Shown here piece by piece: positions 3 through 26,835 of a stretch of 64,000 nucleotides of DNA. Source of the DNA: a virus; the IMG/VR virus record IMGVR_UViG_3300045988_166195, positions 57,023 through 121,022 of that record. The stretch is one strand, 5' to 3'. Below the pieces are notes generated by a model. That model was not told where the DNA came from, did no database searches, and saw only the letters and a list, made by a program, of their open reading frames with translations. A program made the translations under genes and the position numbers. Each line of letters begins with the position of its first letter. Position 1 is the stretch's first letter.

Positions 3-923
3 GTGACAGAGGTGGATTTCGATCAGATGGACGGCGGTGCGACAACCGTCGATGCATTCTACGAGTTCACCGACGAGCAGCTCGTGTCGCTGGTCGAAAA
101 GGGTTTCTTCAACGAGGGCTTTGAGCCACCCAGCGATCTGCTCAACCAGGTGTGGATGCTTCCGGCTCACTATGAAGGTGTTGTTATCGCACCTCGTAAC
201 GAGAACGAAGCACCCCTGGCATTCCTCGATGTCGTCGATCGGGATGGCCTGGTTGTCGACGCTGTGACATCGGGTCTGGATCTGTCCGACTACTTCCCGG
301 ATTACCTCGCTCAGATCCGTGCTCGTGATCATGAGAACGAGAAGTCTGTCGATCATGCGCTGGAGCGCACGGATCACGTGAATGACATCTTCGCTGGGAT
401 GGAGTCTCAGTTCGATGACGAGGGTACCGATGGTCGCACCAACGAGGCCGAGGGCGCATCGATCGCTCAGGCTCTCAGCGGTGAGTCGACCGTGCTACCC
501 GTCATGGACTCGCCTCTCTTCGATGCGCTCATGCGCAACGCTCAGGCCGCTCAGCAGGCGCAGGAGACTGAGCCGGAGATTGAGGCTGAATCCGAGATCC
601 AGTCCGCGCCTGATGTCGAGGCTCAGCCTGAGGTCGTTGACGACGTTGAGAGCCAGCGTGCAACCCTGACGACCGATGCTCTGGCGTCGACCTTCCGTGA
701 GGTCGTGGCCGATGTCATCAACACCTCTGTGGCTCAGAACGCGCCTGAGATTCTGGCTCAGCCCGAGGTTGATTCGATCGAGGATCTGCACGAGGCTGTC
801 GCTGATGCTGAACGAGACACGGAGCGCAAGCGTCTGTCGGCTCGTGAGGCTGTGGAGGCGGCGGCACCGGTCGCAACGGCGGACGAGATTGATGCTGCTG
901 ATCTCGATGATCCAGAATTCTGA
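3..923 (+). CDS. 5'-truncated highly acidic protein; C-terminus ...IDAADLDDPEF
   Basis: Open frame running in from the window edge. Strong acidic bias (D/E-rich) and a PEF C-terminal tail related to the DDGFEL/DEPEF tails of downstream genes. Stop at 921-923. Confidence 0.45.
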   Translation: MTEVDFDQMDGGATTVDAFYEFTDEQLVSLVEKGFFNEGFEPPSDLLNQVWMLPAHYEGVVIAPRNENEAPLAFLDVVDRDGLVVDAVTSGLDLSDYFPDYLAQIRARDHENEKSVDHALERTDHVNDIFAGMESQFDDEGTDGRTNEAEGASIAQALSGESTVLPVMDSPLFDALMRNAQAAQQAQETEPEIEAESEIQSAPDVEAQPEVVDDVESQRATLTTDALASTFREVVADVINTSVAQNAPEILAQPEVDSIEDLHEAVADAERDTERKRLSAREAVEAAAPVATADEIDAADLDDPEF

Positions 924-943
924 CATCATGAGCAGCAAGTAAT

Positions 944-978
944 GACAGGGGCGGTGGGGCATACCTGCCGCCCCTGTC
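944..978 (+). terminator. Stem-loop gacaggggcgg-N13-ccgcccctgtc after the acidic-protein gene
   Basis: Perfect 11-bp inverted repeat read in the sequence. A T-rich stretch (ctttatttaaaaaat) follows ~30 nt later, so intrinsic termination is only plausible. Confidence 0.35.
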
Positions 979-1052
979 GGCACTGCACTGTATGTATTCA
1001 ACGATCTTTATTTAAAAAATAGATGCGATTTGAAGTAACTTGAAAGAAAGGT

Positions 1053-3392
1053 GTGTCGATACCGATGAGCTTGAAGCAGAGCATTGTTGTTGTCAACGAG
1101 TTCAGTGTGCCAACCCCAGGCTCGGGCAAGCATGGTGGTTCTCGTGGTGGCACACCCGGTGCTTACGTGATGCGCTATATGGCTCGTAAAGGCGCAACTG
1201 AGCCTGTGACGCCTATTCGTCGACGCAACACCGAGGATTTCATCCTGCGTTACATGGCACGAGAGAGCGCCACAGAAAAAGCCGTGTCGAGGCATCAGCT
1301 CAAAGACAACGTGCTGCATGTGTCCGGTCAAGGCGGCGTTGCATTCGGTTATGGTCAGCCGTCGTTGTCTGATGAAGGCGTGCGCCGTGCCAGTGCTGAC
1401 ATTCAGCGTTTGTTCGACAAGGGGCACACGGTGATGAAAACCGTGCTGTCTTTCAGCCCTGAGTATCTTCAGGAGACGGGCGTCGTCCCCAAGGGCTTCG
1501 TCGCACAGAACAAGGGCGATTACCGAGGTCATATCGACCAGATGCGTCTGCGTATGGCAATCATGCATGGTTTGGAGCGTATGGGGCATCGTTTTGATGA
1601 CCTGCGCTACGTGGGCGTTATTCAGGTTGATACGTTGCATGTTCACTGCCACCTTGCCATGGTTGATGCTGGGCTCGGTCGACGTGTGCGTACAGAGAAG
1701 GGCATGCAACAGAAGGGTAAGCTCACCAGCACGGATATATCGCTCTTGCGACGCGGTGTTGACTCGTGGCTTGATGAGAACCAGCATGTGGCACACATGT
1801 CCAGTGCCGTGGGCTATGAGCGCATGAACGTTGCTGCGTTCGTGAAGCGTTGGGCTCATGAGAAGGTGCTCGATGAGTCACTACCCCAGTTGTTGTTGGC
1901 GTGTCTGCCTGCTGACAAGACGCTGTGGCGTTACGGGTCTCATCGACCGGAGATGCGACGTGCGAACAGTGTTGCGACAGAGCTCGTCACTGAGTTGCTC
2001 GATCGCCTTGGTTCCCCCATGGGATCAGCCATGATCGCTGTGGAGACATATGCGAACCGTCGTGCTCATCGCGAAGGTCTGAGCGATCAGGAGAAACGAG
2101 CGTTGATTCGTCGTGGCCATGAGACGATTATGGAGCGCAGCGTCAATGGTCTGTACCAAGTGTTGCAATCTCTTCCACCTGAGGCTCTTTCCGTGCGTAC
2201 GCCGATGCTCACTGTGATGAGCCAGGATGTGGAGACGCTCATGGCAACGCAATCTCAGCGCATGAAGACCCAGGCTCAGGGTATGAGCGTTGATGATGAT
2301 CTAGTGGGATTCTCACTGCGCCTTCGATCGTATGGAGCTCGTCTACGGGAACATGATACACAGCGTGAGTATTGGCGTATGCGTGCTGCTGACTGGGAAG
2401 CCGGTCTTCAGGCAGGCGCAGTGTCCCCACAGTCCGAGGTGATGCACAAGCTGTATCTGGAGGAAGAGGAATACCACGCTCGTTGCGTCAGTAAGTACCG
2501 ATCGTTGCTCGGGCCACTAGCGGTAGGTGTTGACGGGCAGCGTCAGGATGACGACTCGTGGAAAGACGTGTTGGAGTCGGTGGATAAGCGACGCGAAGCA
2601 GTCGTTGGTCTCGAAGCTCTGCTGGCAGATCGCTCGATTCCGAAGATGAAGGATGCTGATGAAGCTGAAAAGCTTGGTGTTGCTGCTCACGGCGTGAGCG
2701 GTGGACGCTTGCTGGTAGCTGGTGGGAAAGCTGGACGGACCACTTTGAAGCAACGCTTGGAGCGTGCTCGCGCATCGCTGGCTTCCCGAACAGCCGATCT
2801 TGTGTCGATGCTGTCCGGGAAAGGACTTGTATTGCAAGCGATACAAGACGATGCGCGCGAGGATGATCAAGGTAAGCAAAGCGATGCTGTCACCGTGGTT
2901 CCAGGGGAGCGATGGGCGTTGTCTCAGACGAAGGGTATGGATCTGCACGACGTGCGTTCCGATACTGTTGTCGACATGGCGCTTGGTCGCCATGTTGCCG
3001 ATCGGTTCGTTACCTGGGCGCGCAGAAGGCGACAGCTTGTTGATGACGCTCAGGCGTATCTGCATGAGTCTGGTCAGGAAGACATTGTCGAGATGGTTCT
3101 TCCCCTCGATGATGTACGGCGTATGAATCGTGTTGCTGATGATCTGGAACGCCAGATGTCAGCGAAGAAGACCGGGGATCTCATTCTCACGAGTGCTCTT
3201 AGTGATGTGGTGCCAGTAGCGAAACGTATTCGCCGTAGCGCAACAGTGACGTTTGATGAGGGTCTTGCCGGTATTGTTCGTGAGAACACATGGCGCGAGA
3301 CTGAGCGTTTGGTGCCTCAACTGGAACAGGTGTTGGAAGAGAGCGACACGCAGTCTTCTGATGCCTCGATGGATTCCATGGAATTGGGATGA
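1053..3392 (+). CDS. MOBP-family-like conjugative relaxase (HUH nuclease) with long C-terminal extension
   Basis: Duplicated N-terminal motif VMRYMARKGATEPV / ILRYMARESATEKA resembles relaxase motif I (catalytic Tyr, RP4 TraI 'YITDE'). IQVDTLHVHCHLAMVD matches the His-triad motif III (HxDTDxLHxHxxxN/V) of MOBP/MOBQ relaxases. Alternative GTG/ATG start at 1053/1065. Confidence 0.55.
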   Translation: MSIPMSLKQSIVVVNEFSVPTPGSGKHGGSRGGTPGAYVMRYMARKGATEPVTPIRRRNTEDFILRYMARESATEKAVSRHQLKDNVLHVSGQGGVAFGYGQPSLSDEGVRRASADIQRLFDKGHTVMKTVLSFSPEYLQETGVVPKGFVAQNKGDYRGHIDQMRLRMAIMHGLERMGHRFDDLRYVGVIQVDTLHVHCHLAMVDAGLGRRVRTEKGMQQKGKLTSTDISLLRRGVDSWLDENQHVAHMSSAVGYERMNVAAFVKRWAHEKVLDESLPQLLLACLPADKTLWRYGSHRPEMRRANSVATELVTELLDRLGSPMGSAMIAVETYANRRAHREGLSDQEKRALIRRGHETIMERSVNGLYQVLQSLPPEALSVRTPMLTVMSQDVETLMATQSQRMKTQAQGMSVDDDLVGFSLRLRSYGARLREHDTQREYWRMRAADWEAGLQAGAVSPQSEVMHKLYLEEEEYHARCVSKYRSLLGPLAVGVDGQRQDDDSWKDVLESVDKRREAVVGLEALLADRSIPKMKDADEAEKLGVAAHGVSGGRLLVAGGKAGRTTLKQRLERARASLASRTADLVSMLSGKGLVLQAIQDDAREDDQGKQSDAVTVVPGERWALSQTKGMDLHDVRSDTVVDMALGRHVADRFVTWARRRRQLVDDAQAYLHESGQEDIVEMVLPLDDVRRMNRVADDLERQMSAKKTGDLILTSALSDVVPVAKRIRRSATVTFDEGLAGIVRENTWRETERLVPQLEQVLEESDTQSSDASMDSMELG

Positions 3393-3528: not shown

Positions 3529-4092
3529 ATGGCTACTCTACGTGGTAAGGGTTCGATGAAGTCGGTGGAACTGGTCGTTGTGGAGTATCCCAACGCTCAT
3601 TCCAAGGATGGCAAGCGTGCCTTCCTCGACGTGATGGTTCGACCTGTTGAGGGTGCTGCCCCTCAGCGAGTTCCTCACCTGGTTTCGACCAAGAAGGAAC
3701 TCGACGGTAAGACCGTCTACGATCATCAGGCTGGCTACAGCGCTTCTCAGCGCGATGCGTTCGTTGCAGCTGCGGGCGATAACATCGTCCAGATGCCGGA
3801 GCGCAACGGTCGACCTGGTCCGACTGTTTACGCCATTCAGGCGGATGTCATGTCCGCTTCTGGCAAGCAGACCGGCTTGGTCATCAACTCTAAGACGGTG
3901 AAGCCGTCCGAGTTGGAGCCGATCGACGAGAACATTCTCGATACGATCTACGCCGCTTCCAAGGCTGCTGCTGAGGCCGACAAGGCCCGCAAGGCTGCTG
4001 AGAAGGAGGCGCAGAACGAGGCTGCCGCCGAGGCCCAGGTTTCCGAGCCTGAGGTCGAAGAGGTTGCCGAGATCGACGAGCCTGAGTTCTGA
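3529..4092 (+). CDS. Hypothetical protein with Ala/Glu/Lys-rich C-terminal region ending ...EVAEIDEPEF (SSB / T7 gp2.5-like acidic tail)
   Basis: Strong RBS gaaaggagggtggtcattATG. The acidic tail ending in Phe is shared with neighbouring genes. No catalytic motif recognised. Confidence 0.55.
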   Translation: MATLRGKGSMKSVELVVVEYPNAHSKDGKRAFLDVMVRPVEGAAPQRVPHLVSTKKELDGKTVYDHQAGYSASQRDAFVAAAGDNIVQMPERNGRPGPTVYAIQADVMSASGKQTGLVINSKTVKPSELEPIDENILDTIYAASKAAAEADKARKAAEKEAQNEAAAEAQVSEPEVEEVAEIDEPEF

Positions 4093-4237: not shown

Positions 4238-7200
4238 TTGTTTGATGATGAGCGTTTGAACGATAAGTACCCGATGCTGCGAGACTTTGCGGCTAAGCTT
4301 GCGCCGCCTGCTCGTGACATTGTGGGGCGAGAGAGCGAGAAGATCTCGCTCATGAGCTCCCTGGCTCGTCCTGAGATGTGTAACGTGATCTTGCTGGCCC
4401 CGCCTGGCACCGGTAAAGCTCACCCGAATGATGAGTTGATCCCTGTTGCCGATGAGCGTGGATATGTCCGTGTTGGTTTGCTCAAGGTGGGCGATCGTGT
4501 CTTTGATGAGCACGGTGAGCCTGTGACCGTGACGGGTGTGTTTCCTCAGGGGATCAAGCGTGAGTACGTCGTGGTGACGAACCATGGCGACCGTGTGCGC
4601 TGCAACGATGAGCACCTGTGGACGGTGCGATCGGTTGGTGATGCAGAAGGTGTGCAGCAAACGATGTCACTGCGTGAGATCATGGACGCGGGACTTATTG
4701 GTTCCGATGGCGCACCCATCTGGCAGCTTCCTGCTTCTGGTGCGCTTGTGCGACAGAGCCGTCTTCTCCCGGTTGACCCTTATGTGTGTGGTGCGCTGCT
4801 GGGCTGGGGCGTTCGCATCGATGAGCGTGGGTACGTGACCATTCCTCATGAGATGCCCGATGAAGTTTTTGTTGCTATCGAGGACCACATGGGGTGGGAG
4901 CGTGTGTATGGCAGTGGTGACAGTGTTGAGCGTTCGACGTTTATCAACCGTGCGACAGGTAAGCGTCTGACACCTGATGAGGTGATGACTCATCCGGTGA
5001 TGACGAGTGTCATCGTTAAGCCGGAGGATCAGCGTCATATTCCGTACACGTACATCACCAGCTCGGTGAAGGATCGAGAGACTGTGCTACGAGCGCTGCG
5101 AGACAGTGAGTCGTACCGTTTGTCCCAAGGGACTGCATGGGTTGTTGATGCTGATATGCATGAGCTAGAGCGTTCTCTCGATGTGACTGGCGATATGATC
5201 GCTGAGGTGATCGACACCGATCGCGAGATTGAGATGACGTGCATCATGGTCGACTCTGAGACACACCTGTATCAGGTGGGTCGAGGCCATGTTGTCACGC
5301 ACAACACGGTGCTCGTGCAGTCCTGTATGCAAGATGATCCAGAGCGTATTTACCTGGAAGTCGACATGGCAAAGATGATCGCTGACTTGTCGAACCCTGA
5401 AGAGATGGCTGCGCGCTTGAAGGCTCTGTTTGATGAGGCTGAGAGTTTTTCTAGGTCCGAAGGTCGAGAGATCGTGCTGTTCATCGACGAGTTCCACCAG
5501 GTGGTGCAGCTGTCTGCTGCTGCCGTGGAAGCGTTGAAGCCGTTGCTTGCTGCTTCTGGATCTCGGGGTATTAAGGTTATCGCTGCGACCACGTATGACG
5601 AGTTCAACGCTCATATCGCATCGAATCTGCCGCTTGTTGAGCGTCTCGCGCGCATTAACATTCCTCAGACGAATCGTGAGGTGACGATCGCCATCCTGAA
5701 GGGTATGGCGAAGAAGTACGGTGTCGATGAGGGGATCTTTGATGATGCTCTGTATGAGCAGATCTTTGAGTACACGAACAGGTACGTTCCTGCCTCTGTG
5801 CAGCCTCGTAAGTCGATCCGTGTGCTCGATGCCATGGTTGGTCGTCATCGGTATCTGGGCGAGCGTATGGACAAGACGCTGTTGGCAACCGTGCTGAAGA
5901 TTGAGTTCGGTGTTGAAGTGGAGATCGATGTCAATGCTGCTGAGATCAAGGCTGAGCTGGATAAGCGAGTGTTTAGTCAGGACTTTGCCACCACGTCGAT
6001 TGCTCGTCGACTCCAGTTGTGCGTCGCTGGTCTGAATGACCAGAGCAAGCCTATGTCATCGCTGTTGTTCACCGGAGCGACAGGTGTGGGCAAAGCCACC
6101 ACAGATTCTACTCGTGTACCAGTCTTTTCTGAGGACGGTTCTGTGGCATGGAAACTTGCTGGTGACCTTGTTGCCGGTGACTACGTGTTTGCTCGCGATG
6201 GCTCTCCGACGAAGGTACTCGGGGTGTTCCCTCAGGGGGAACGCGACGTGTATCGAGTGACAATGGGGGATGGGCGCATTCTTGATGTGTCTGACAATCA
6301 TCTGTGGGCGGTTTACCCAAATCGGCAATCGCGTGAGCAAGGTCCAACAATCTATTCGACCGAAACTCTGATGAACAAGGGTATCGTGTCGAAGTTGAAC
6401 AATGGTCGTCAGGGGATGAAGTATGTTGTTCCAATGAATAAGCCAGTTCAGTGGCCTACGGTTGATCTCCCTGTGGATCCTTACGCACTTGGAGCTTTGA
6501 TTGCCAATGGTTCGCTCACTGAGAAGGCGCTTGCCATCTCTTCGGATGATGAGGAAACGGTTGCTCGCGTTGGTCAAGCTATTGGTGCTGCGTCATGGGA
6601 TCAGAATGGTAACAATTACTCTTGGTACTTCGGTACAGGAGAGGTATGGGGCGATGACATGAAGCGACGGATTCAGCTCGCGGATGTGTTTGTCGGTTCG
6701 CTTTCTGAACTGATTGGTGTGAAGTCGCCTCAGCGATTTATCCCTGAGCAGTATCTACATTCGTCAATCGAGCAGCGATGGGCGTTGGTTCAAGGGTTGT
6801 TCGATTGCGATGGCTCGATTGGTGCGCGTGATGGTGGTCGTTACAACGTTTCGTATGCTACGGCTTCGAAGCGTTTGGCCGAGGATGTTCGCATTCTTCT
6901 GTTCTCCCTTGGGGTGCCGTGTTCCGTTAACCAGCATGTGCGCGAAAGGAACGGTAATACCCAGGTTGAGTATGAGGTTCATGTGAAGGCTCATAACTCG
7001 GATAAGCATCTCTTTTTCCGTCTCGATCGAAAGAAGAGCCTTGCCATCAAGGCTCAATCTGTGGCAAAACAGCGAGAGAAAAAGTTCGATTATGTCGGCA
7101 TTCGTTCTATCGAAAAACTCGATACGAAAGAGAGCATGACGTGTATCTACGTCGACAATGACGAGCACCTGTATCAGGCTGGTGATTTCATCGTCACGCA

Positions 7201-8137: not shown

Positions 8138-8167
8138 TACAACCGAATCGATCGAAAGGATTTGTCT

Positions 8168-10444: not shown

Positions 10445-10618
10445 CATCGATTACGTGATCGCATAGAACAAGAGGTGCGGTGAGGGTTATCCTTGCCGCA
10501 CCTCTTTTCTGTGTCTCTGCGCTTCTGTTTCTGATATGATTAGGTTGGTGAATCAACCAAATCGAAAAGATGCAAGAAAGACGTAAGAGACAGAAGAGAA
10601 AGGTGAAAGGTGGTGCAT

Positions 10619-15378: not shown

Positions 15379-15558
15379 GGCGGTTCTCCTGATTCTATTA
15401 GGGGTTGTTTGTATTATTCAGTGTATCATAAATAGTCGGTTATATGTATGCGGGTTCCCTTGTGTTTCCAGTCGAAATGCGGGTTTTTGTCGGGTAGAAT
15501 GGAGGGCGTAATACCCGATCGATCCAGTGGATCGAAACTCCAGGAAGGAGAATGCGTT

Positions 15559-18500: not shown

Positions 18501-21009
18501 GTCTCCTGATGAGATTGAAGAGTTGCATGGATCGACTGACATGATGACGCTTTTCCGGGAGAATCCGGGTTTGGATGTCGTCATGGCACCGTTCAGCGCT
18601 GTGTCTCGTTTCAACGGCGGCTCGGCACGTGAGGCGATGCGGCAAACGTCTGCGCTTCATCTGCCAAACGGCACAACCGTTGAGGCAGGTATTGGTCAGG
18701 TGTCGTTTATCGGCACGCATATGACCGTGGATGCGAAGACGGCTGCATACGATGAAGCTGCGATCCGAGCTGGACAAGGTCGTAAGGCGTCGTCTCAGCT
18801 TGCATGGGCCTTGCAGTCCCAGGGCTGCGATAAGGTGTTGGGGCAGATGTATGGTGGCAACCTGCAAGCTCTTGCGCAGCTGCGTGAAATGGCTCTGGTG
18901 TGCGGTTTGGACATCGAGCCTGATGGCACCTTGCGCGATGGTCATGATGATCTTGCTGTTGGTGGGCAGCGCCGTCTCATCGAGATGGGCGATGTGCCGC
19001 TGACTGAACGTGGATCGTTCGACGTGCGTCGCGTTCGTAACGATTTCGCGTCGCTGATTGGTGACGCTGGTGGTGACATGGAGATTCCGTTCCCGCTGAC
19101 GATGCCAACGGGCGCTCGTACGCCTCATGCAACAGACACCACCTGGCGTGTGCCGGTGCTGAGTTCGCATCTGCGATCGGGCCAGGATCTGGATGACGGT
19201 ACGTCGACGGTCCATGATTACACGTATCGTTACCTTGCGATCCGTGAATGGTCGCTGCGCTACAAGCATGCGGCTGATCGCGCTGCGTCTGGTGAGCTGA
19301 CGGGTAAGGAGCTTTCCGATGCTCGTCGAACGATGGCTGAGGCTATGCACCGTGCGCAGACGGCTTACGATGGCATTGCGCAAGACATCATGCGTCGCCG
19401 GTTTACCGGCAAGCGCAATGTCTTCAAGGAAGGTCTCATGGCTTCGCGTCTGCCGCACTCGGCTACCGCTGTGTGGACGGGTGATCCTCGCTTGGACATC
19501 GACCAGGTTGGTGTTGGCCCGGAGCTGGCGAAGAAACTACACTTGCGCGATGGTGACTACGCGCTTGTGTGGCGTGATCCTGTTCTGCGTGATGCGGGTG
19601 TCCGTTACATGCGTGTTGCGATCGATGACCGTCTCACGGGTGTGAGTGTGAATCCAAACATGGTCAAGTGCTTCGACGGCGACTTCGACGGTGACTCTGT
19701 GGCTGTTGTGAAGCTGGGTGATGGTCCGGCACATGAGCAAGCGCTGGAGCGTCTGACTGTCGAGGCTAACCTCATCGATCTCGGTCAGAGCATGGACGAC
19801 GAGGGTCGTTACCCTCTTGCGATGCACAACGCGCTCGATGTGAAGGTGTCGCAGCACTACGACTCTCGTCATGCGGATGCGATGGATGAGGTTCATCAGC
19901 GCGCCAACGATGCGTACTACGATCTGACTGAAGGGGATGCTACTCGTGAGCAGTTCCTGGAGGCGGGTCGTGATGTCGTTGATGCAGCGTCGTATATGTA
20001 CCGTGATGCGCTTCAGCATCAGTACGGTGAGGCTGTGTTGTCGTTTGGTTCCGTTCAGGAGCACATGAAGTCTGTGGCGGCTGCGTGTATTGAGACGGGA
20101 GCTAAAGGCTCGCCTAAGAAGATGCTGGATTACGCTCGGTACATCGGCTATGACCCTGAGAACCAGGTGGATCTGGTGACCACGTGTGTGACTCGTGGGG
20201 AACAGCAGGGCACCATGTTTGCGACGGCTGTGAAGTCGTTTGGTACCGGTGTTGCCGGTACGTTCTCGCAGCGTGGTGTGCGAGCTCTTCGTAACGATGA
20301 GCTCAAGGCTGTGTTGGAGCTGACCTACCCGGTGACGCAGAGTATTTTGCAGGCTAAGCACGACCCTGTGGATGCTCGTCATCGCTATGAGTTGCTGATG
20401 GGTCCGGCGCGAAGCTTGTGGCGTGGTCAGATGATTGCACAGGATGCCAACGGTGTGTGGAACACTGTGACGGATGACGATCATAAGCCGGTTCAGGCTA
20501 CCAAGGATCAGTGGGTCGCTGTGTTCTCGCAGTTCTATGGCGATGATGGTCTGGGTGTGGCTGTGAACAGTGACAACATCACGAAGGTTGCAAATGCGCT
20601 CAGCGATAGCAACGGGGTGATGGTGAATCTGGAGGACGAGAAGGTCATTGAACAGCTCGCTTCTCCGATGGATCGTCTGGCTTACGGCGGTGACTTCACC
20701 ACGATGCAAGCTCTGGCTGAGACTCGGGCAAACTTGTTCGAGGGTCGGTGGAACGTTACGTTTGCACCAGCTCGTGTGCGTGAGGTGCTGGAGGCTGATG
20801 TGGAGACGCAAGCTGAGGCACCGGTGATCGCCATGGAAGACACTGTGGCTCGCGTGGACCGTGATGAGAAGATCGGTCGACGTAAGTCGACATCGTGGGC
20901 TGTCCCAGTTCGCTCGAACACGGGTGCCAGCGCAGCTGAGCGTTACGGTTTGACGACACAAGACAACAGTGAGACAGACAAGTCTGTCGATGATGGTTTC
21001 GAGCTGTAA
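15559..21009 (+). CDS. Giant single-chain multisubunit-type RNA polymerase (fused beta-like + beta-prime-like, two double-psi beta-barrels)
   Basis: Beta hallmark VGDKISDMHGNKGVISLIV followed by NPGLDVVMAPFSAVSRFNGG (cf. E. coli beta GDKMAGRHGNKGVIS ... NPLGVPSRMNIGQ). Beta-prime hallmarks ALVWRDPVLRDAGVRYMRVA (cf. NRAPTLHRLGIQAF) and VKCFDGDFDGDSVAVV (NADFDGD catalytic loop). ATG 15559 with GGAAGGAG RBS; the ORF track's upstream start 15448 is less likely. Ends ...KSVDDGFEL. Confidence 0.75.
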   Translation: MQTRNAGLRRYMYEHMIARTINRTSEITKTPILVSQGRRLRDLMEERLNEQGRSFNDGDLPVTDALDAIQSIMEEHVPGYKPLFQPADTSSKGYKVLYEEFRNMVGLNGSAGAAGPRLPISPYDPRWGSRRTVKQAGTSILYVLDGDIAAYADGKPSNIEKATTSELTLYRLTDEGKAKEAGRALSLDDVSGLTELMGRMSTAEYNEVRQWVLDGARNPETGRYNARQFMSTDALARSRAVLDMLAEEGIPYTIEKDLRPGQIRARLTGTNMTVRLTDTRDKEQWVGRVYDNGATLYFSTTARRDNKQVAYTPTVDEVCDLVRVALGRPVERKDGKGLVGRVGERQTSKGKTVQESYLSTGTLTSAYKDMPGMNGEQIVIRRQMKERSASSRFFADTPEGREQASGFITGAVHSARHNVIEQLDVDGLIQQFRDHEDAAREGTYIPMLSGDPDLAAVGRAYWDVLRGAETTLLKPEATRAEYAEATGLLDDMDQESDLSGVHDMLAGSVAYTGTPEERVRAHLRDLLDTQIGIDEPIDSDDFVFDPVRVARYMTSEHGQWRNNDDLVAAMRSVGMPQEKIVGESFYSNTFRDRLITFDESTALPMETVEDEFTQSMLQVVSDTLESCAVTPGSIRVDANGVVEWTGSIMRSQTGKEEPVSGTIGQIFARGENGEIITRFNSGNDLMIVPGFDARVVAQKPGENKSLEERTRLIGYEQQMSDAIRYRVQADVLSGRSRVGEPASLNSVYRRLSDTRHRADHYERALEEGMDRKILDAILATEARRVRYPNALRDGSTIDADFRASRAREQGIGGDPANDTTMDPWVLTGGRNMSLLSEEADGYFDPIMTSGGVNQGVTRYLVSGAQVNPDGSIVRSDKNDRAPLMLTEQAQLMSYDPFDRQQMTTSNLMNASSVTKPVGTAFMTAGGWTMEDSIVVSADFAKQYRVRGTDGQMRDLIVGDKISDMHGNKGVISLIVDRNADLSPDEIEELHGSTDMMTLFRENPGLDVVMAPFSAVSRFNGGSAREAMRQTSALHLPNGTTVEAGIGQVSFIGTHMTVDAKTAAYDEAAIRAGQGRKASSQLAWALQSQGCDKVLGQMYGGNLQALAQLREMALVCGLDIEPDGTLRDGHDDLAVGGQRRLIEMGDVPLTERGSFDVRRVRNDFASLIGDAGGDMEIPFPLTMPTGARTPHATDTTWRVPVLSSHLRSGQDLDDGTSTVHDYTYRYLAIREWSLRYKHAADRAASGELTGKELSDARRTMAEAMHRAQTAYDGIAQDIMRRRFTGKRNVFKEGLMASRLPHSATAVWTGDPRLDIDQVGVGPELAKKLHLRDGDYALVWRDPVLRDAGVRYMRVAIDDRLTGVSVNPNMVKCFDGDFDGDSVAVVKLGDGPAHEQALERLTVEANLIDLGQSMDDEGRYPLAMHNALDVKVSQHYDSRHADAMDEVHQRANDAYYDLTEGDATREQFLEAGRDVVDAASYMYRDALQHQYGEAVLSFGSVQEHMKSVAAACIETGAKGSPKKMLDYARYIGYDPENQVDLVTTCVTRGEQQGTMFATAVKSFGTGVAGTFSQRGVRALRNDELKAVLELTYPVTQSILQAKHDPVDARHRYELLMGPARSLWRGQMIAQDANGVWNTVTDDDHKPVQATKDQWVAVFSQFYGDDGLGVAVNSDNITKVANALSDSNGVMVNLEDEKVIEQLASPMDRLAYGGDFTTMQALAETRANLFEGRWNVTFAPARVREVLEADVETQAEAPVIAMEDTVARVDRDEKIGRRKSTSWAVPVRSNTGASAAERYGLTTQDNSETDKSVDDGFEL

Positions 21010-21094: not shown

Positions 21095-21125
21095 ATAGTA
21101 CAATATACTGATATATGAGTCGAAA
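21095..21125 (+). promoter_or_regulatory. Degenerate copy of conserved upstream motif (GTACAATATACTGATATATGAGTCGAA)
   Basis: Aligns with GTGCGATATACTGGTATACGAGTCGAA upstream of paralog 3. Confidence 0.3.
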
Positions 21126-21153
21126 ACCCGTTCCAAGAAAGGAAATATTTATC

Positions 21154-22365
21154 ATGTCTGTGTCAGCTATGTCAGAGTGGATGGCGAAGTTCCCCCAGGA
21201 TTGGGTCGAGATTCGTTATGGTCTTGAGGCTCATGAGTGGGCTGGTTCGCTTTCTGATCGAGTGATGGCGATTATCAATAAGAATGACCCCGCACGAGAA
21301 GATCGGGTTAATGCATTGCTGCGTGACAATGCTGTGCTTCTTGAAAGAAGGTTTCAGGGTCACAGGCGTCCAGGACCTGACGAGGACTTTATTGATTATG
21401 CCGAGTTCCGTGATGCCATTTCTCATGTTGTAGAAAATGGTATTTCTATTAACGATGAAACCTATTCGCAAATCCATTATGTGGATAGTACATGTGTGCG
21501 TTCTCCGACAAAGGCGCTGCTGCGTCCGCATCATGAGGTATATCCCAATGCCAACGTACAGGCTTTTTATCGTCGGTCTTTGCGCGAGGGGAAGCCTTCA
21601 AAACCTTCGGATGGATATATCAAAAATGTGTATGGTCTGAGAGGCGATGAATGGACGGGCACATCAGTCGATGTGGGGGCGATCATCAATGATCGCTCAT
21701 CGAGGATAGCATCGATAAGGGATCAGCGTGTCAATGATTTCTTGCGTGATCAGGTGGCTGTTTTCGAGATGGGCATGGAGAAGCTTGAGGCCAAGAACGC
21801 AACATATAACGATATGGGAGTAGGTGCTCGTGCTTATGGTTATGATCTGCGTGATGCGATTGAGGAAGCCGTAGAGAATGGTATTTTGATTAATGCTGAA
21901 ACGATGAACGCTATCAAGAGGGTAGAGCATGATTACGTGACTCCATATGTCGGGGAATCGTTGGCGAACCAATATGACAAGTTGTATGAGCTTAATGAAG
22001 CACGGAAACATCATCATGAGATTGCGCCATCGTTTGCATCATCACATGAAAAGAAGTCTGAGCCAGCGATTCATTCGGTCATTACCGGTGGAAGTGGTCA
22101 TGGTAAAGAACAGGTTCAGCTTGCTAACGTTTTGAGCGGACGGATGCCCTCGATGGGTCGCGATACAGACGGCCAGTCTTTGGCACCGTCTACCCCGTCT
22201 CAGGGTTCTCGTCAGGGGTCTATTGGGGCAGCGCTTCCCGGTAGTTCCATTACTGTTGGTCGTCGGACGCCTCGTGTGTCGCCCACTGCTGGTACGGCTC
22301 GTCGTATGGGTATTTCTGAGTCTCAGGTACAGACCCCAAGCGTCGATGACGGTTTCGAGCTGTGA
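21154..22365 (+). CDS. Tandem-repeat protein, paralog 1 of 3; C-terminus ...RRMGISESQVQTPSVDDGFEL
   Basis: Internal repeats RYGL(E/D)xHEWxG(S/T)LSDRVxAIINKxDPxxExRVNALLRD and a second helical repeat (GILINxE(A/T)MxAIKRVE). Pro/Ser-rich linker, conserved C-terminal 40 aa. RBS aaagga-N8-ATG at 21154. Confidence 0.65.
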   Translation: MSVSAMSEWMAKFPQDWVEIRYGLEAHEWAGSLSDRVMAIINKNDPAREDRVNALLRDNAVLLERRFQGHRRPGPDEDFIDYAEFRDAISHVVENGISINDETYSQIHYVDSTCVRSPTKALLRPHHEVYPNANVQAFYRRSLREGKPSKPSDGYIKNVYGLRGDEWTGTSVDVGAIINDRSSRIASIRDQRVNDFLRDQVAVFEMGMEKLEAKNATYNDMGVGARAYGYDLRDAIEEAVENGILINAETMNAIKRVEHDYVTPYVGESLANQYDKLYELNEARKHHHEIAPSFASSHEKKSEPAIHSVITGGSGHGKEQVQLANVLSGRMPSMGRDTDGQSLAPSTPSQGSRQGSIGAALPGSSITVGRRTPRVSPTAGTARRMGISESQVQTPSVDDGFEL

Positions 22366-22392: not shown

Positions 22393-22440
22393 TGAAGAAG
22401 CAGGTCTCGCCTTCGGGTGGGGCCTGCTTCTTTGTCTGTA
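22393..22440 (+). terminator. Rho-independent terminator (gaagcaggtctcgccttcgggtggggcctgcttc + tttgtctgtat)
   Basis: Hairpin plus T-run read directly between paralog 1 and paralog 2. Confidence 0.5.
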
Positions 22441-22476
22441 TACGTTGCAATGGTGCGATATACTGGTATACGAGCC
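22441..22476 (+). promoter_or_regulatory. Conserved upstream motif ACGTTGCAATGGTGCGATATACTGGTATACGAGCC (element-specific promoter candidate)
   Basis: Near-identical copy at 23391-23427 (ATCGTTGCAATAGTGCGATATACTGGTATACGAGTCG). Related pieces occur at 21095, 8063, 54980 and 63091. Confidence 0.5.
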
Positions 22477-22509
22477 AAACACGTGGCGATGATGGAAAGG
22501 AAGGGTGTT

Positions 22510-23322
22510 ATGACGCTTTATTACGATCAGGAAATCAAGGAGTATACCGATGCCGGGATCAGGCGATACAAAGGTCTTGATCCACATGAAGAGCTGGATG
22601 CACCAACCGAGCGGTATGGTCTTGATCCACATGAGTGGACAGGAACATTGGCCGATAAGGTGACAGCGATTATCGGTAAAAATACGCCCGAGAAGGAAAC
22701 GCATGTGAATGCGTTGTTGCGCGATGCGGCAAAATCATTTATGAAGAATGCCAAATATGCGGAAATGAATGCCCATAATGATGAAACTACCTTTAAGAAG
22801 GTAATGTCTGTCAACGGTGATGATTTGCGTGCTGCTATGTCCGAAGCGTCCTTGGGCGGCATTCTTATTAACGATGAAGCGATGGATGCTATCAAACGTG
22901 TGGAAAAGCGTTATCTTTCATATTGGAGTTTTGATTTCGGTTTTGATTCTCTGACGCATGCATACGATGAGCTGTATAAACTTAATGATGCGCGAGCTCA
23001 TTTCCGTGAGAGTGCGCAAGTGATGCGAGGTGCTGCGAATACCCCAGCGATTTCAAATCCAGAGTTTGATCGTTTCGCCCCGCCTCAGGGTTCACGTGTG
23101 ACGACGGTTCCGCCGCCTGTGCGGTCTGCGCCCTCTATCCCGTCTGCTCTTTCTATGTCCGCTGTGTCCACTCAGCGAACTGGTTCTATCCAGGCTGTGC
23201 TTCCAGGCAGTGGTATCAAGGTGAGTCGAGCGGCACCTCATGTTCCGCAGACTGCCCGTCGTATGGGTGTTGTTGAGTCACAGGTGCAGACTCCGAATGT
23301 TGATGACGGGTTCGAGTTGTGA
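22510..23322 (+). CDS. Tandem-repeat protein, paralog 2 of 3; C-terminus ...RRMGVVESQVQTPNVDDGFEL
   Basis: Same repeat units as paralog 1 (YGLDPHEWTGTLADKVTAIIGKNTPEKETHVNALLRDAAK; ILINDEAMDAIKRVEKRY; FDRFAPPQGSRVTTVPPPVR). Start ATG 22510 after ggaaaggaagggtgtt. Confidence 0.65.
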   Translation: MTLYYDQEIKEYTDAGIRRYKGLDPHEELDAPTERYGLDPHEWTGTLADKVTAIIGKNTPEKETHVNALLRDAAKSFMKNAKYAEMNAHNDETTFKKVMSVNGDDLRAAMSEASLGGILINDEAMDAIKRVEKRYLSYWSFDFGFDSLTHAYDELYKLNDARAHFRESAQVMRGAANTPAISNPEFDRFAPPQGSRVTTVPPPVRSAPSIPSALSMSAVSTQRTGSIQAVLPGSGIKVSRAAPHVPQTARRMGVVESQVQTPNVDDGFEL

Positions 23323-23349: not shown

Positions 23350-23392
23350 GTCTTGCTTGAAAGCGGGGCCTACTTCATCGTTTTGCCATGTT
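23350..23392 (+). terminator. Weak hairpin + T-rich tract after paralog 2
   Basis: ggtaggtcttgcttgaaagcggggcctacttcatcgttttgcc read directly. Confidence 0.25.
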
Positions 23393-23427
23393 ATCGTTGC
23401 AATAGTGCGATATACTGGTATACGAGT
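23391..23427 (+). promoter_or_regulatory. Second copy of conserved upstream motif (TTGCAATAGTGCGATATACTGGTATACGAG)
   Basis: 31/33 identical to the copy at 22441-22476. Confidence 0.5.
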
Positions 23428-23457
23428 CGAATGCAACTAAATGAAAGGAAGATGGTC

Positions 23458-24786
23458 ATGTCGACGATATGGTATGAAGGCCCCACCGATGGCAACATCG
23501 AGGGGCGTTACGGTCTCGATTCGCACGAGTGGGTGGGGTCGCTGTCCGATAGGGTGGCGACGATCATTGACAAGGATGATCCTTGGAAGGAAACTCATGT
23601 GAATGCGCTCTTGCGTGATGGCGTGGAGTTCTATGCGCAGAAGTCGCAGGATCATCCAGAATTGAGTGATGATGATCAGATGCGCGATGCTATCTCTTAT
23701 GTGGCGCATAGCGGTGTTCTCATCGATGATGAGACTCTGTTGGCTCTTACGGATGCGGATGACAAGTACGTCATCCCGTTTGGTGCAGAGTCTTTGATGT
23801 ACGAATACAACAAGGTGCATCAGCCTGATTACGGACGGATTTATCAGCGTCAGCGTGATGCTGCGCAGTTGCCGTACGCGGAGGCAACAGACGAAGAGAT
23901 CAAGGAGCACTATGGCCTTGATCCACATGAGTGGAAAGGGAGTCTTGCCGATAAGGTGATGGCGATTGTTAACAAGAATACGCTTGACAAGGAAACGCAT
24001 GTGAATGCGCTTCTACGTGATGGTGCACGGCTGTTCGCTCAGAATATGGAAGCTCAACCGGTATCGGGTGTGAGTGAAGATGAGATGAGGTACGCGGTGG
24101 AGTCTGGTGGCGATGAACTACGCGCTGCCATCTCTGACGCATCGTGGGCTGGTGTTCTCATCAACGATGAAGCGATGGAAGCCATCAAGCATGTGGAGAA
24201 GGAGTACATCACTGAGTTCGGTGGAGACTCTCTGACGCATGCGTATGATCAGATGCGTAAGCTGAACGATGCACGCGCTCATTATCGTGAGTCTGCGAAG
24301 GAGATGCGTGGCTCTGCGCCTGCTGCGCCTGCTGCGCCTGTTACCCAGGCACCTTCGAGCTTTGATCGTTTCGCCCCGCCTCAGGGTGCTCGTGTGACGA
24401 CTGTTCCGTCGCCTGTGCGCACTGTTGGGTCTGCTCGGTCTACTCAGGCAGCTCAGTCTGCACTGTCTGTGCCTCCTATTCCGCAACCTCCGAAGACGCC
24501 GGGATCCCAGGTTCGCACAGGTGGTCCTGTGCGGGTGGGTAATGTCGCCAAGGACTGGCTGGCTGCGAATGGTCGTGACGAGAAGGGTCGGCCTCTTGCG
24601 TCTACATCTACGCCGTCTACGCCTCAGGTTCCGGCTCAGCGATCGGGTTCGATCCAGGCTTCGCTTCCTGGTAGCGGTGTCACCGTGGGTCGATCGACGC
24701 CGCGTGTGCCACCCACTGCCCATCGTATGGGTATCCCTGAGCCCCAGGCGCAAACCCCAAGCGTTGATGACGGCTTCGAGCTGTGA
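23458..24786 (+). CDS. Tandem-repeat protein, paralog 3 of 3 (two copies of each repeat unit); C-terminus ...HRMGIPEPQAQTPSVDDGFEL
   Basis: RYGLDSHEWVGSLSDRVATIIDKDDPWKETHVNALLRDG and HYGLDPHEWKGSLADKVMAIVNKNTLDKETHVNALLRDG. Pro/Ala/Ser-rich linker. ATG 23458 has the best RBS spacing. Confidence 0.65.
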   Translation: MSTIWYEGPTDGNIEGRYGLDSHEWVGSLSDRVATIIDKDDPWKETHVNALLRDGVEFYAQKSQDHPELSDDDQMRDAISYVAHSGVLIDDETLLALTDADDKYVIPFGAESLMYEYNKVHQPDYGRIYQRQRDAAQLPYAEATDEEIKEHYGLDPHEWKGSLADKVMAIVNKNTLDKETHVNALLRDGARLFAQNMEAQPVSGVSEDEMRYAVESGGDELRAAISDASWAGVLINDEAMEAIKHVEKEYITEFGGDSLTHAYDQMRKLNDARAHYRESAKEMRGSAPAAPAAPVTQAPSSFDRFAPPQGARVTTVPSPVRTVGSARSTQAAQSALSVPPIPQPPKTPGSQVRTGGPVRVGNVAKDWLAANGRDEKGRPLASTSTPSTPQVPAQRSGSIQASLPGSGVTVGRSTPRVPPTAHRMGIPEPQAQTPSVDDGFEL

Positions 24787-24828
24787 CGCGCTTGCGGGGA
24801 GATAGAAAGCAATAGAAAGGAGGACAAG

Positions 24829-26490
24829 ATGGCTCGTCCACCTCGTCAACTTCCAGCGCCTCGTTACGGGGGTGAAGTTGGTCCGCAGAAGGTTCAAGAC
24901 GAAACTGCGACAATGGCTGTGACCAAGGAGCAGATTTTCGACAAGAAGCCTGAACCTGTTCACGCGGTAGAGCCAAAGCCTGCGCTCGATTGGGCGCAGC
25001 AGCTGAGGCTCGATATGCGCTATCACGCTGATGGGTATCTTCACGCTCTCAGCCAGATAAATCTGAAGACCATGAAGCGAAAGGCTGACATCGCTTCTCG
25101 CATGAACGATCTTCAGGGTAAGCACAAGGCTTATGCGTCGATGATGGTGCTCAGCGCATTGGTACCGTTGAAAGACGGCGTATCGATGTCGGCTGTGGTT
25201 GAATCTGTTGGCATGGGTGTCACTATGTGGATGTTGTCGCCCAACTTCCGCCAACAGGTGAAGTCATTCGCTCGTGATGCGCGTATGGCTGTCGAAGACA
25301 TGGCTGAGGCGCGTCGACGCAGTCAGTCGAAACAGTTGCATGATAAGGCCGATCAACATCGAGAGAAGCATGGTGGTGAATTGCCGCCCTCTCTGAAGCG
25401 TCGTCTGGAGCGTATCGAAGCGAAGGAGCGCAATGGTCGCATCCCGTTCAATGAAGCGAGTGCGGCTTTGACGCATCTTGGTCTGAGCGAAGCGATGTTC
25501 AACCAGATGCGGCAACCGGGTGTGGATCCTGTTGAGGTTCAGGAAGGCTATGCGCACCTGATGGAGCGCTTCTGGGATGATGTCCACAAGGACGGCTTGG
25601 ATCCCGAAAAGGTGAACACCGTCAGTCGTATGCTCATGGGCCAACGGATGCGTTATGAGCCCCACTGGGCGAATGCGTTCGTTGAAACCGCTCATGGCGA
25701 GGTCGATATGGACATGGTGGAGACGGTGGACGCTCAGACGGGTGAACCCCATCGAACGTGGACGGGTATCTGGTCCACGCGCATGGGTGAGCCTATCGTG
25801 GGAGGTTCTTTCACTGTCCGTCCTCCGTACAACGAGATGCAGCATGAGTTGTCTCTGAGTACGTGCATGGCTCGTGAGATGGAGCGTGCAGCGCTGAATG
25901 GTAACATTGCGGATCTGAATGAGTCGCTGCTTGCCTACGGTTCTGCGTGGTCTGTTCGAGACAAGAACCTGGACGTGCACAGCGTTCCTGGTGCGATGGG
26001 TGAGAAGATTCGTCGAGCTCGTCGTGGTCTCGATGCCATGGAATTCGATGGTTTTGACCGCGATCAGCAGCGAGACATCTATGCGACATCGTTCGTTCAC
26101 GCCATGGACATGGTGGCGAAGGCTCACCCGGACATCGAGCGTCACTGGGCGCAGCAGTACGGTTCTCAATGGCGATCGGAGATGCGAGACTTCGCAGCGA
26201 CGCCAGAGGAAACATACAACCGGTGGCAACGGGGGGAGTTTTACTCTGATGCACGTGAATCTCCAGGGCATGACAATGCCCATGTGGATCCGCACACGGA
26301 ACGAATGAGGGAAGATTCCAAGCGTCGACGCAGCGCGTACAACCGTGCGCGTGACAACCAGGAGTACAACGCTCATGAGACATCGGCGTTCAAGGCTGAA
26401 GACTTTGAACTCAATGATGTCGACGACGAGTTTGACATGGGTGGGTACGATCGACCTAATGACAACGATGGTTTCGAACCATCTCTATGA
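24829..26490 (+). CDS. Hypothetical 553-aa protein; C-terminus ...DMGGYDRPNDNDGFEPSL (variant of shared tail)
   Basis: RBS gaaaggaggacaagATG. No recognised domain. Charged, helical composition. Confidence 0.6.
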   Translation: MARPPRQLPAPRYGGEVGPQKVQDETATMAVTKEQIFDKKPEPVHAVEPKPALDWAQQLRLDMRYHADGYLHALSQINLKTMKRKADIASRMNDLQGKHKAYASMMVLSALVPLKDGVSMSAVVESVGMGVTMWMLSPNFRQQVKSFARDARMAVEDMAEARRRSQSKQLHDKADQHREKHGGELPPSLKRRLERIEAKERNGRIPFNEASAALTHLGLSEAMFNQMRQPGVDPVEVQEGYAHLMERFWDDVHKDGLDPEKVNTVSRMLMGQRMRYEPHWANAFVETAHGEVDMDMVETVDAQTGEPHRTWTGIWSTRMGEPIVGGSFTVRPPYNEMQHELSLSTCMAREMERAALNGNIADLNESLLAYGSAWSVRDKNLDVHSVPGAMGEKIRRARRGLDAMEFDGFDRDQQRDIYATSFVHAMDMVAKAHPDIERHWAQQYGSQWRSEMRDFAATPEETYNRWQRGEFYSDARESPGHDNAHVDPHTERMREDSKRRRSAYNRARDNQEYNAHETSAFKAEDFELNDVDDEFDMGGYDRPNDNDGFEPSL

Positions 26491-26502
26491 AAGGAGTGAC
26501 CA

Positions 26503-26835
26503 ATGTTGGGTTTCCCAAAGGATGACGACACGATCGGCGGTCTGTTCGGTGTCAACGAAGAGGATCGTCACGCATGGGCCAAGGAGCGTCAGATGAGGCT
26601 GGAGCGTCAGCAGATGCAAAAGCCTGGTCTGGCGAAGAAGGCAACGATGGCTGCTTACGAAATCGCTGCTGCTGGCATCACTTCGCAGATGCGTGCGGCG
26701 TACATCGAAGAGGCCCGTGGCACGATGGCGAAAGAGACGACCACGACGACTCGTAGTCAGTCTCGAAATATTGATCCCGAACTCGAAGAGATTCGACGGG
26801 AAGCACCGTCTGGTGGCTACGAATTCGTTGGCTGA
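26503..26835 (+). CDS. Hypothetical 110-aa protein; C-terminus ...APSGGYEFVG
   Basis: RBS gaaaggagtgaccaATG, 12 nt after the previous stop. Last gene of the plus-strand block. Confidence 0.5.
   Translation: MLGFPKDDDTIGGLFGVNEEDRHAWAKERQMRLERQQMQKPGLAKKATMAAYEIAAAGITSQMRAAYIEEARGTMAKETTTTTRSQSRNIDPELEEIRREAPSGGYEFVG

Follow-up and report, generated by a model that had tools for sequence, protein, structure and literature searches.

A conserved acidic-hydrophobic C-terminal tail on unrelated proteins of a conjugative transfer operon, a possible docking motif for the type IV coupling complex

In type IV secretion systems (T4SSs) receptors of the VirD4 type recognise translocation signals, and plasmid-encoded proteins are known to pass through conjugative T4SSs (PMC8406263). 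Among the protein substrates described for conjugative systems are relaxases, the Sog and TraC primases, the SSB of the F plasmid, PsiB and ParB (PMC8406263; PMC5512222). T4SS substrates must be unfolded for translocation (PMC5826034), and transferred RNA polymerases (RNAPs) have been recorded for N4-like phages only (PMC5512222). In the Dot/Icm system acidic C-terminal E-block signals bind to basic patches of DotM in the coupling complex (PMC5802825). Little is known about how conjugation machines of Gram-positive bacteria pick their protein substrates, and a short signal that could be transferred between proteins has yet to be defined in these systems. Here we describe a short C-terminal motif, hereafter the tail, shared by unrelated proteins of a conjugative element. 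The element was found in a stretch of 64,000 nucleotides (IMG/VR record IMGVR_UViG_3300045988_166195, positions 57,023 to 121,022; hereafter the window), the first 27 kb of which form one plus-strand gene block containing a relaxase, a coupling protein and an RNAP gene.

Nine proteins of this block end in the pattern acidic-[G/P/E]-[F/Y/P/M]-[E]-[L/F]. The first is encoded just 5’ of the relaxase gene (3..923, +); it is truncated at its 5’ end in the window (369–384 aa at full length in relatives), very acidic, and ends ...DLDDPEF (tail codons 906–920). The MobL-family relaxase itself (1053..3392, +; Pfam MobL, E=1e-62) ends ...SMDSMELG (codons 3372–3389). The next carrier, a protein of 187 aa (3529..4092, +; the ORF, or open reading frame, can also be read from 3520), has a beta-rich domain at its N-terminus, followed by a long helix and an Ala/Glu-rich linker, and ends ...EIDEPEF (codons 4075–4089). 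Further downstream follows a fused beta-beta’ two-barrel RNAP (15448..21009, +; Pfam Rpb2_6 and Rpb1_2) with an invariant catalytic motif DGDFDGD and the tail ...SVDDGFEL (codons 20986–21006); its start is probably located near 15559 (the closest homologue has 1816 aa). Three paralogs are encoded next: paralog 1 (21115..22365, +; probable start 21154) ends ...SVDDGFEL (22342–22362), paralog 2 (22417..23322, +; probable start 22510) ends ...NVDDGFEL (23299–23319), and paralog 3 (23353..24786, +; probable start 23458), in which the domain “YGLDPHEWTGSL...HVNALLRD” is duplicated, again ends ...SVDDGFEL (24763–24783). The last two carriers are a mostly helical protein of 553 aa with unassigned function (24829..26490, +; ...NDNDGFEPSL, terminal codons 26467–26487) and a protein of 110 aa (26503..26835, +; ...GGYEFVG, 26812–26832).

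Since three of the nine carriers are paralogs of one another, they represent seven unrelated families. The initial annotation had quoted eight of these C-termini, all of which are present in the sequence as stated, and had attributed them to at least seven otherwise unrelated proteins; the proteins are not all unrelated, as the three paralogs have their last ~45 aa in common by descent. The ninth carrier, absent from that list, is the MobL relaxase. The consensus given at the time, [DE][DE][GP]FE[LF]-COOH, fits only the four proteins ending in DDGFEL, and the other carriers show looser variants. The paralogs contain one or two copies of a domain of ~110 aa (“RYGLDPHEWTGSL...K(E)xHVNALLRD ... 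LINDEAM.AIK.VE”), a common Pro/Ser-rich linker and a “GSIQA.LPGS.I.V.R” box ~40 aa ahead of the tail; their family is almost limited to Actinomyces-type elements.

All tails are net negative, and the linkers that precede them are of low complexity, with many insertions and deletions. The tails are predicted to be disordered: in AlphaFold2 models the predicted local distance difference test (pLDDT) score is below 50 for residues 173–190 in the 187-aa protein family and for residues 510–553 of the 553-aa protein. The latter carries three copies of the motif within its last 30 aa (AEDFEL, VDDEFDM and the terminal NDGFEPSL), an arrangement kept in its close homologues P0125–P0128. The tail was not seen on the AAA+ ATPase, the 760-aa membrane protein and the VirD4-like coupling protein of the same block, nor on its HU protein and ~33 other window proteins. 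All minus-strand replication and repair genes of the window are among those without it.

For a quantitative description we built a five-column position-specific scoring matrix (PSSM) from RNAP orthologues alone, taking the 10 C-terminal residues of each ([D/E/G][D/G][Y/F/P/L][G/E/Q][L/M], followed by mostly 0–2 and at most 4 trailing residues). The C-termini of 565 unrelated ORFs of at least 150 aa from the fetched loci served as controls. Nine of the 13 plus-strand cluster proteins scored above the 95th percentile of the controls, whereas among the ~36 remaining ORFs of the window with 100 aa or more a single one did so, a small ORF with a marginal score. When all 19,362 positions in 46 window proteins were scanned, 19 matches of at least 8 bits were obtained; nine of these lie within 2 residues of a C-terminus, where ~0.07 would be expected. 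We then retrained the matrix more strictly, removing RNAPs more than 60% identical to the one in the window and collapsing similar tails. Six carriers still score above at least 99.6% of the controls with this matrix, namely the RNAP and its three neighbouring paralogs, the relaxase and the 553-aa protein. The relaxase tail reaches 8.7–9.4 bits. Acidic C-termini that do not show the hydrophobic pattern (...ESNESDDH, ...SASDDDDQDS, ...PEQEPEQE) score low.

The RNAP-trained matrix also recognised the tails of other families. Of the orthologues of the 553-aa protein, 74% lie above the 95th percentile of the controls (p=6e-24, Mann-Whitney test), and for the genes of ~100–125 aa found at the position of the 110-aa gene the fraction is 59% (p=1e-13). 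Tails of the AAA+, 760-aa protein and coupling protein orthologues score no higher than the controls. HU tails (44 orthologues) are slightly above the controls overall (p=1.7e-5), with 2% exceeding the 95th percentile. Conservation scored column by column, counting back from the C-terminal end (mean BLOSUM score), was informative for the 187-aa family alone, because the mostly 0–3 trailing residues shift the register; a best-window PSSM was used in its place.

In the orthologues of four carrier families from ~70 related actinobacterial elements the tail is kept, while the preceding 20–40 aa are hypervariable and contain insertions and deletions. For the RNAP we compared 76 homologues with 31–97% identity: the 30 aa before the end vary, and the terminal [DEG][DG][YFPLM][EGQ][LM] is retained with mostly 0–2 (maximum 4) trailing residues. 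Termini found include DDGFEL, DMDFDL, GDGMTL, TLEPSL, GGPELG, ADGYEL, VDDYQL, SDGFQP, DDDYGMGY, NDGYEL and DDGMSL. Members of the 553-aa family (~70 loci) end for example in SEDYQPA, DVDFELG, EHEYQA, GPELGA or NEPELGG, and the ~100–125-aa proteins in EPDLEL, DPDFEL, DEGFEF, DNGYE[LF], SGYDFGG or DYGPEM. In the 187-aa family (47 Actinomyces-lineage homologues, 64–97% identity) the Ala/Glu-rich linker gains and loses segments; 45 homologues have an intact C-terminus, which is EPEF in all except one EPEL and one EPGF. More distant orthologues of this protein end [DE][DEQ]P[AT]VG, DQPELG or DAVP[SN]F. The paralog family is rare (20 representative clusters among 1.8 billion proteins), and its intact members, down to 34% identity, all end in DDGFEL, DGGFEL, EASFEL, DDGFEF, DDEFEL or DDGFEM. 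Orthologues of the protein encoded 5’ of MobL in the related loci L088–L090 end identically in ...AADLDDPEF, and the Streptomyces orthologue (L001) ends ...GEDGEQSLGT. The relaxase terminus DSMELG is likewise conserved in L088–L090. Overall, the tail types track taxonomy.

Variants of the tail were also found exchanged between families, as a shared receptor would predict. The RNAP of locus L086 ends in TLEPSL, comparable to the GFEPSL of the 553-aa protein in the window. In locus L084 a member of the paralog family ends in DDEPEF, and its 55%-identical homologue P0143 has DDGFEF at the aligned positions. This indicates that the ...PEF and ...GFEL tails are variants of one motif.

Conservation was also noted initially at the protein level with differing codons, and this is confirmed: the seven tail codons of the four VDDGFEL genes differ by 1–4 changes, all of them synonymous, which excludes chance as well as a recent duplication of a 3’ gene segment. 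Homologues in related elements, proposed at the time as the check, keep the tail under purifying selection. The tail is therefore a functional C-terminal motif and not the leftover of a recent 3’ duplication. Taken together the motif is real: it is position-specific, conserved in several unrelated families, interchangeable between families and limited to those transfer-operon proteins that are not part of the machine.

The machine components encoded between the carriers are candidate partners of the tail. A two-ring ClpB-like AAA+ ATPase (4238..8011, +; Pfam AAA_2, AAA, ClpB_D2-small and LAGLIDADG) ends ...PYDKPRA, without a tail. It contains two inteins at aa 61–356 and 620–989, the second with a LAGLIDADG homing endonuclease. 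Each ring is interrupted once, directly behind its Walker-A lysine (PPGTGK|AHPND...VVTHN|T and ATGVGK|ATTDS...IVTHN|T). A 590-aa intein-less homologue from Rhodococcus pGS01 (52% identical) aligns with clean gaps at both intein sites; the versions of other relatives have 887–924 or 1243–1431 aa. We compared the intein-free operon AAA+ with a second ClpB-like AAA+ encoded on the minus strand of the window (33389–35263). A 13-aa segment (IGSPSGYVGSESA) containing the D2 GYVG pore loop of the minus-strand protein is missing from the operon AAA+, which in addition has no aromatic D1 loop. The operon AAA+ is therefore unlikely to thread substrates, and judged by its sequence it is probably not a threading unfoldase. 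It remains a candidate partner of the tail.

The protein of 760 aa (8162..10444, +) is a tail-anchored membrane protein with a transmembrane helix at aa 702–720 and no C-terminal tail motif. Its acidic disordered region at aa ~220–300 contains repeated [DE]-x-P-x-F motifs (LPDFDPDD, DDLPFDE and EDPFKD in the window). Orthologues in L001–L070 show [DE]-x-P-[VLI]-F-[DS] motifs such as GDPLFD, DEPVFDD and DAPVFDE; with ~2.5 motifs per protein, clustered at 30–40% of the length, the family is ~8x above background. These internal motifs may be a multivalent relative of the ...DEPEF tail, and we consider the protein a candidate adaptor.

The VirD4-like type IV coupling protein (T4CP) has 1351 aa (10610..14665, +; Pfam T4SS-DNA_transf, TraG-D_C and TrwB_AAD_bind; NCBIfam conju_CD1115) and ends ...FERRENE. 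It has two transmembrane helices and ~700 residues beyond a minimal VirD4. Between Walker A and Walker B, next to an all-alpha region, lies a basic insert (aa 690–860) in an otherwise acidic protein. The insert has an isoelectric point (pI) of 8–10, mostly above 9, in 16 of 16 sequences and is 50–56% identical from Actinobacteria to Lachnospiraceae. The protein ends with an acidic extension of ~290 aa (aa 1060–1351, net charge -21 to -36). The T4CP is the leading candidate for a receptor of the tail, and within it the basic insert would be the preferred site. Two internal PSSM matches, FDDPEL (aa 721) and DLDDYGI (aa 1129), were considered as pseudo-substrate motifs and dropped, as they are not conserved in orthologues. 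A phmmer search of the T4CP against PDB sequences returned nothing useful. The machine components of relatives also end differently from the carriers: an AAA+ orthologue ends ...VEVSAVR, a T4CP orthologue ...AIEMNSK, and the 760-aa orthologues end in a transmembrane helix. The tail was also not seen on the T4SS-like genes that precede the window’s first ORF in L088–L090.

The T4CP and the RNAP are closely linked. Both families match the same 13 of 72,556 plasmids in PLSDB, which are found in Streptomyces, Rhodococcus, Gordonia, Staphylococcus (5) and Lactococcus (4–5). Synteny of the block AAA+ / ~735–740-aa protein / T4CP / RNAP extends from Actinobacteria as far as Lachnospiraceae, where the RNAP has ~2490 aa, and on a Staphylococcus aureus plasmid the T4CP and RNAP genes are also close together. 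The AAA+ is present in the transfer operon of every relative, Firmicutes included. The linkage between T4CP and RNAP is thus deep. In the window an ORF of 213 aa on the minus strand (14737–15378), ending ...CPYCSGRIKLQQ, splits the plus block between the T4CP and RNAP genes. The same slot is occupied in relatives by a DUF4379 / MTES_1575 protein of 537–594 aa, in L084 also by a NADAR protein, and looks like a variable cargo site.

The carriers are encoded in the relaxase-T4CP operon and include the relaxase, the machine parts are devoid of the tail, and T4CP and RNAP share 13 plasmids. From these observations we propose that the tail serves for docking on the type IV coupling complex, a reading based on sequence that we put forward tentatively and with a little less than even confidence. 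A common recognition tag had already been proposed in the initial annotation, partly because the element encodes a VirD4-like coupling protein and two Clp-family unfoldases. The observations just listed fit this proposal and support it in part; the argument from the unfoldases is weak, since two ClpB-like AAA+ proteins are indeed encoded but the one in the operon has no GYVG pore-loop segment. In the Actinomyces lineage the relaxase, a canonical T4SS substrate, carries the tail.

In mechanistic terms the tail would act as a short linear motif for docking, placed at the very end of the protein and displayed on a disordered linker. It would be composed of an acidic run, a G/P/E turn residue, an aromatic residue, Pro or large hydrophobic residue, E/Q/G and finally L/M/F, usually with no more than 2–3 small trailing residues. 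The marked set would comprise the relaxosome-side proteins including the MobL relaxase, the fused RNAP, the lineage-specific paralogs and two conserved proteins of unassigned function. Their tails would bring them to one receptor in the coupling complex (T4CP, pore-loop-less AAA+ and 760-aa protein) encoded in the same operon. From there they could be handed to the T4SS and, most likely, delivered to the recipient along with the DNA. In this way the element would arrive equipped for its own transcription, as phage N4 does with its virion RNAP. We infer that a single receptor is involved, that this receptor is part of the coupling complex and that export follows docking. Export of the RNAP by the conjugation machine is possible but doubtful. 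We are equally hesitant about the most far-reaching form of the proposal, in which a single C-terminal peptide would serve as a universal T4SS “ticket” in actinobacterial elements, RNAP, relaxase and accessory proteins being injected and the incoming DNA being transcribed without the host RNAP.

Several observations weigh against coupling-complex docking followed by export. An RNAP of 1,850 aa would need to be unfolded in order to pass a T4SS (PMC5826034), yet the operon AAA+ does not have canonical pore loops. The tail is weak or absent in the relaxases of Streptomyces and Kribbella, and outside the Actinomyces lineage most relaxases show no clear tail (23% lie above the 95th percentile of the controls). 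Proteins typical of establishment in these elements do not carry it, namely ArdA (L086), SSB (pGS01 and pGKT2) and HU. The families in Streptomyces each keep a flavour of their own (DYGMGY, EDYQPA, EPAVG and PDLEL), which may mean that one receptor is tolerant or that there are several. Firmicute relatives show only a faint version, with the RNAP ending ...[LM]Q[YF][NGD] and the product of the next gene ...TFYELS[VK]. Finally, the stricter matrix places both ...PEF tails and GGYEFVG below the control 95th percentile; these three are supported instead by conservation inside their own families.

Other explanations for the tail have to be weighed against the docking motif. It could be an assembly motif comparable to the tip of SSB, by which the carriers would be tethered on the transferred DNA to a hub (the SSB interactome, HU or each other) independently of secretion. 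The architecture of a folded domain, a disordered linker and an acidic-aromatic tip is the same as in the tails of SSB, T7 gp2.5 and FtsZ. Most carriers (relaxase, RNAP, relaxase-flanking proteins) plausibly act on DNA, and the operon closes with a basic HU. Furthermore, the ...D[DE]PEF tails of Actinomyces and the ...DAVP[SN]F tails of Rhodococcus and Gordonia presumably resemble the actinobacterial SSB tip ...DDEPPF. However, the Pro-Phe-COOH signature is not conserved. No OB (oligonucleotide/oligosaccharide-binding) fold was detected. We regard this explanation as rather unlikely; HU in particular is an unlikely alternative partner. Somewhat less probable still is a tag recognised by an AAA+ protein, either one of the element’s two ClpB-like ATPases or host Clp/Lon, as in the recognition of ssrA by ClpX, leading to unfolding, possibly before export, or to timed degradation. 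The element does encode two two-ring ClpB-like AAA+ proteins, one of them in the transfer operon of every relative, and the minus-strand protein has the GYVG pore loop. The requirement of T4SS substrates for unfolding (PMC5826034) would also fit such a tag. Against it stand the missing GYVG segment and aromatic D1 loop of the operon AAA+; the GYVG-bearing protein is absent around the RNAP in L001–L003 and thus lies outside the conserved module. We take the RNAP tails of Streptomyces, Rhodococcus and Gordonia (DDYGMGY, EGLGA, EGMGA) to resemble ssrA tags (...(D/E)NYALAA or ...DYALAA), but the tails in the window (FEL, PEF, PSL/EPSL, FVG, ELG) do not have the small non-polar ends typical of ssrA-like degrons, and no ClpP-type peptidase is encoded among the window genes.

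It is very improbable that the tail is a generic acidic sequence without a specific partner, that is, a solubility tag or an intramolecular DNA mimic which auto-inhibits DNA-binding surfaces. The carriers are acidic or bind DNA, their tails are net negative, and the family flavours could reflect intramolecular co-evolution. However, other acidic C-termini score low when the hydrophobic pattern is missing, the aromatic/hydrophobic and E/Q/G positions are specifically conserved, identical 8-aa tails occur on the RNAP and on the unrelated paralogs, and variants swap between families. A resemblance due to chance, or to a 3’ gene segment that was recently duplicated or converted, is extremely improbable. 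Common descent explains the last ~45 aa of the paralogs, but not the nine C-terminal matches, the retention of the tail in orthologues down to 31% identity, or the synonymous differences in the tail codons, 5’ of which the RNAP and paralog genes are only 37–47% identical across 75 nt. The motifs of beta-clamp binding (QL[SD]LF), HbYX proteasome docking and Hsp70 EEVD/TPR interaction were also considered and rejected, as their aromatic and terminal residues are placed differently.

The plus block closes with the HU-family DNA-binding protein (26986..27351, +; Pfam Bac_DNA_binding), which has a pI of 10 and no motif. The remaining window consists of minus-strand replication, repair and toxin genes (MazF, UvrD, the second ClpB-like AAA+, MgsA, SNF2, a D5-like primase-helicase and RecJ). 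The toxin gene of the MazF/PemK family directly after the plus block (28659–29123, -) is without a tail. In L086 (18876–20300, -) a MazF/PemK-family toxin gene and the ArdA anti-restriction gene lie side by side, again without a tail. The gene at 41635–42675 (-), initially called SSB-like and a putative SSB at best, had no match in Pfam, NCBIfam or PHROG, and its product ends ...SVDSPWAI.

The closest relatives of the element are contigs from a metagenome-assembled genome (MAG) of an uncultured Actinomyces with 95% and 86% RNAP identity. These contigs, L004 (CALIZH010000054) and L037 (CALIZH010000382), represent two distinct elements that were binned into one MAG. Syntenic clusters are located on plasmids of Streptomyces, Rhodococcus fascians (pGS01) and Gordonia (pGKT2) and in ~70 actinobacterial genomes. 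A megablast search with the first 25 kb against PLSDB gave zero matches. Member sequences in the protein database run into the hundreds and come from metagenomes of the mouth and gut (e.g. 614 for P0001); the element family seems to be common in human-associated Actinomyces.

The system offers a motif of 5–7 residues together with natural carriers and negative controls in the same operon. Culturable relatives are available with Gordonia sp. KTR9 (pGKT2), Rhodococcus fascians (pGS01) and plasmids of Streptomyces and Arthrobacter. As an export signal, the tail would mean that a complete RNA polymerase can be sent to the recipient by conjugative elements; it would also explain the constant pairing of the T4CP and RNAP families and provide a tag for protein delivery between Actinobacteria. 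Should the “ticket” proposal hold, the peptide would be the first portable signal for translocation to be defined in a conjugative T4SS of Gram-positive bacteria, and the RNAP a conjugative counterpart of the N4 virion RNAP. As a hub motif, it would still point to an interaction network, new in kind, that is centred on a plasmid-borne RNAP. Peptides at the C-terminus that act in secretion or docking are already known as a kind. The motif itself, its carriers (RNAP, MobL relaxase) and the Gram-positive conjugative setting were not found in the searchable literature; searches on this system, on plasmid or conjugative RNAPs and on actinobacterial T4SS signals yielded no description.

When compared with known systems, the likeness to the tails of SSB (D-D-D-I-P-F-COOH) and T7 gp2.5/gp4, which had been pointed out in the initial annotation, holds for the architecture of a disordered linker with an acidic tip and C-terminal aromatic residue, and the ...DEPEF and ...DDPEF ends look similar. 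It does not extend to Pro-Phe-COOH, which is absent from most orthologues: the nearest are the ...PEF ends of the Actinomyces lineage and, for pGS01 and pGKT2, ...VP[SN]F, whereas most orthologues end AVG, GMGY, YQPA, LEL or ELG. Furthermore, the tip of SSB belongs to one hub protein, while the tail described here occurs on many different proteins. With the ssrA degrons of ClpX/ClpA it has in common that the same signal is placed at the free C-terminus of unrelated proteins. The tails here are encoded in the genes and not added by transfer-messenger RNA, and they end in E-L, E-F or P-S-L; only some variants from Streptomyces and Mycobacteriales (GLGA, GMGA) approach ssrA-like ends, and the DDYGMG[YA] tail of the Streptomyces type is reminiscent of ...DYALAA.

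In type VII secretion the unstructured C-terminal heptapeptide of CFP-10/EsxB (...SSQMGF) is bound by the FtsK-like ATPase EccC. The variants ...GMGY, ...GMGA and ...GLGA resemble this tail, and docking on a hexameric ATPase of the FtsK/VirD4 superfamily is what we propose here as well. A WXG100/WXG fold, a YxxxD/E motif or a match to the EccC family was not found in our system, which has a relaxase and a VirD4-type T4CP instead. The Arg-rich, net-positive C-terminal signal of VirB/VirD4 systems (T4ASS) is not matched, as all tails here are net negative. The tail of F TraD binds TraM and mediates coupling between relaxosome and T4CP (PMC8406263), a role proposed for the tail here as well. In both cases an acidic peptide at the C-terminus ends with an aromatic residue. 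The positions are reversed, however, since in F the tail is found on the coupling protein, whereas here it is carried by the relaxase and accessory proteins and the T4CP is tail-less.

The E-block signals of Dot/Icm (PMC5802825) are likewise acidic and located in the last residues of unrelated proteins (here within the C-terminal ~30), and at the core of the Dot/Icm coupling complex stands a VirD4 homologue that is long extended at its C-terminus, comparable to the T4CP described here with its ~290-aa extension and basic insert. Our system differs in being a Gram-positive conjugative T4SS with a CD1115-type VirD4, and family searches with Pfam and NCBIfam revealed no homologue of DotM, DotN or IcmSW among the cluster proteins. 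Moreover, the tail has 5–7 residues with an aromatic/Pro core, in contrast to the diffuse E-block of 10–20 residues, and its carriers are DNA/RNA enzymes of the element itself and not host-directed effectors. E-block signals, too, have an important hydrophobic residue a few positions ahead of their end.

To our knowledge the known substrates of conjugative T4SSs share no common linear signal, and an RNA polymerase has not been described among them. F TraI, for example, uses internal TSA/TSB domains. The known substrates are nevertheless element-encoded establishment helpers that are recruited via a VirD4-type receptor and enter the recipient with the DNA, a route which for the tail carriers is proposed only. 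In their genetic setting the two agree: as is the case for sets of conjugative substrates, the tail carriers are encoded together with a relaxase and a VirD4-type coupling protein, an arrangement that is syntenic in ~70 elements.

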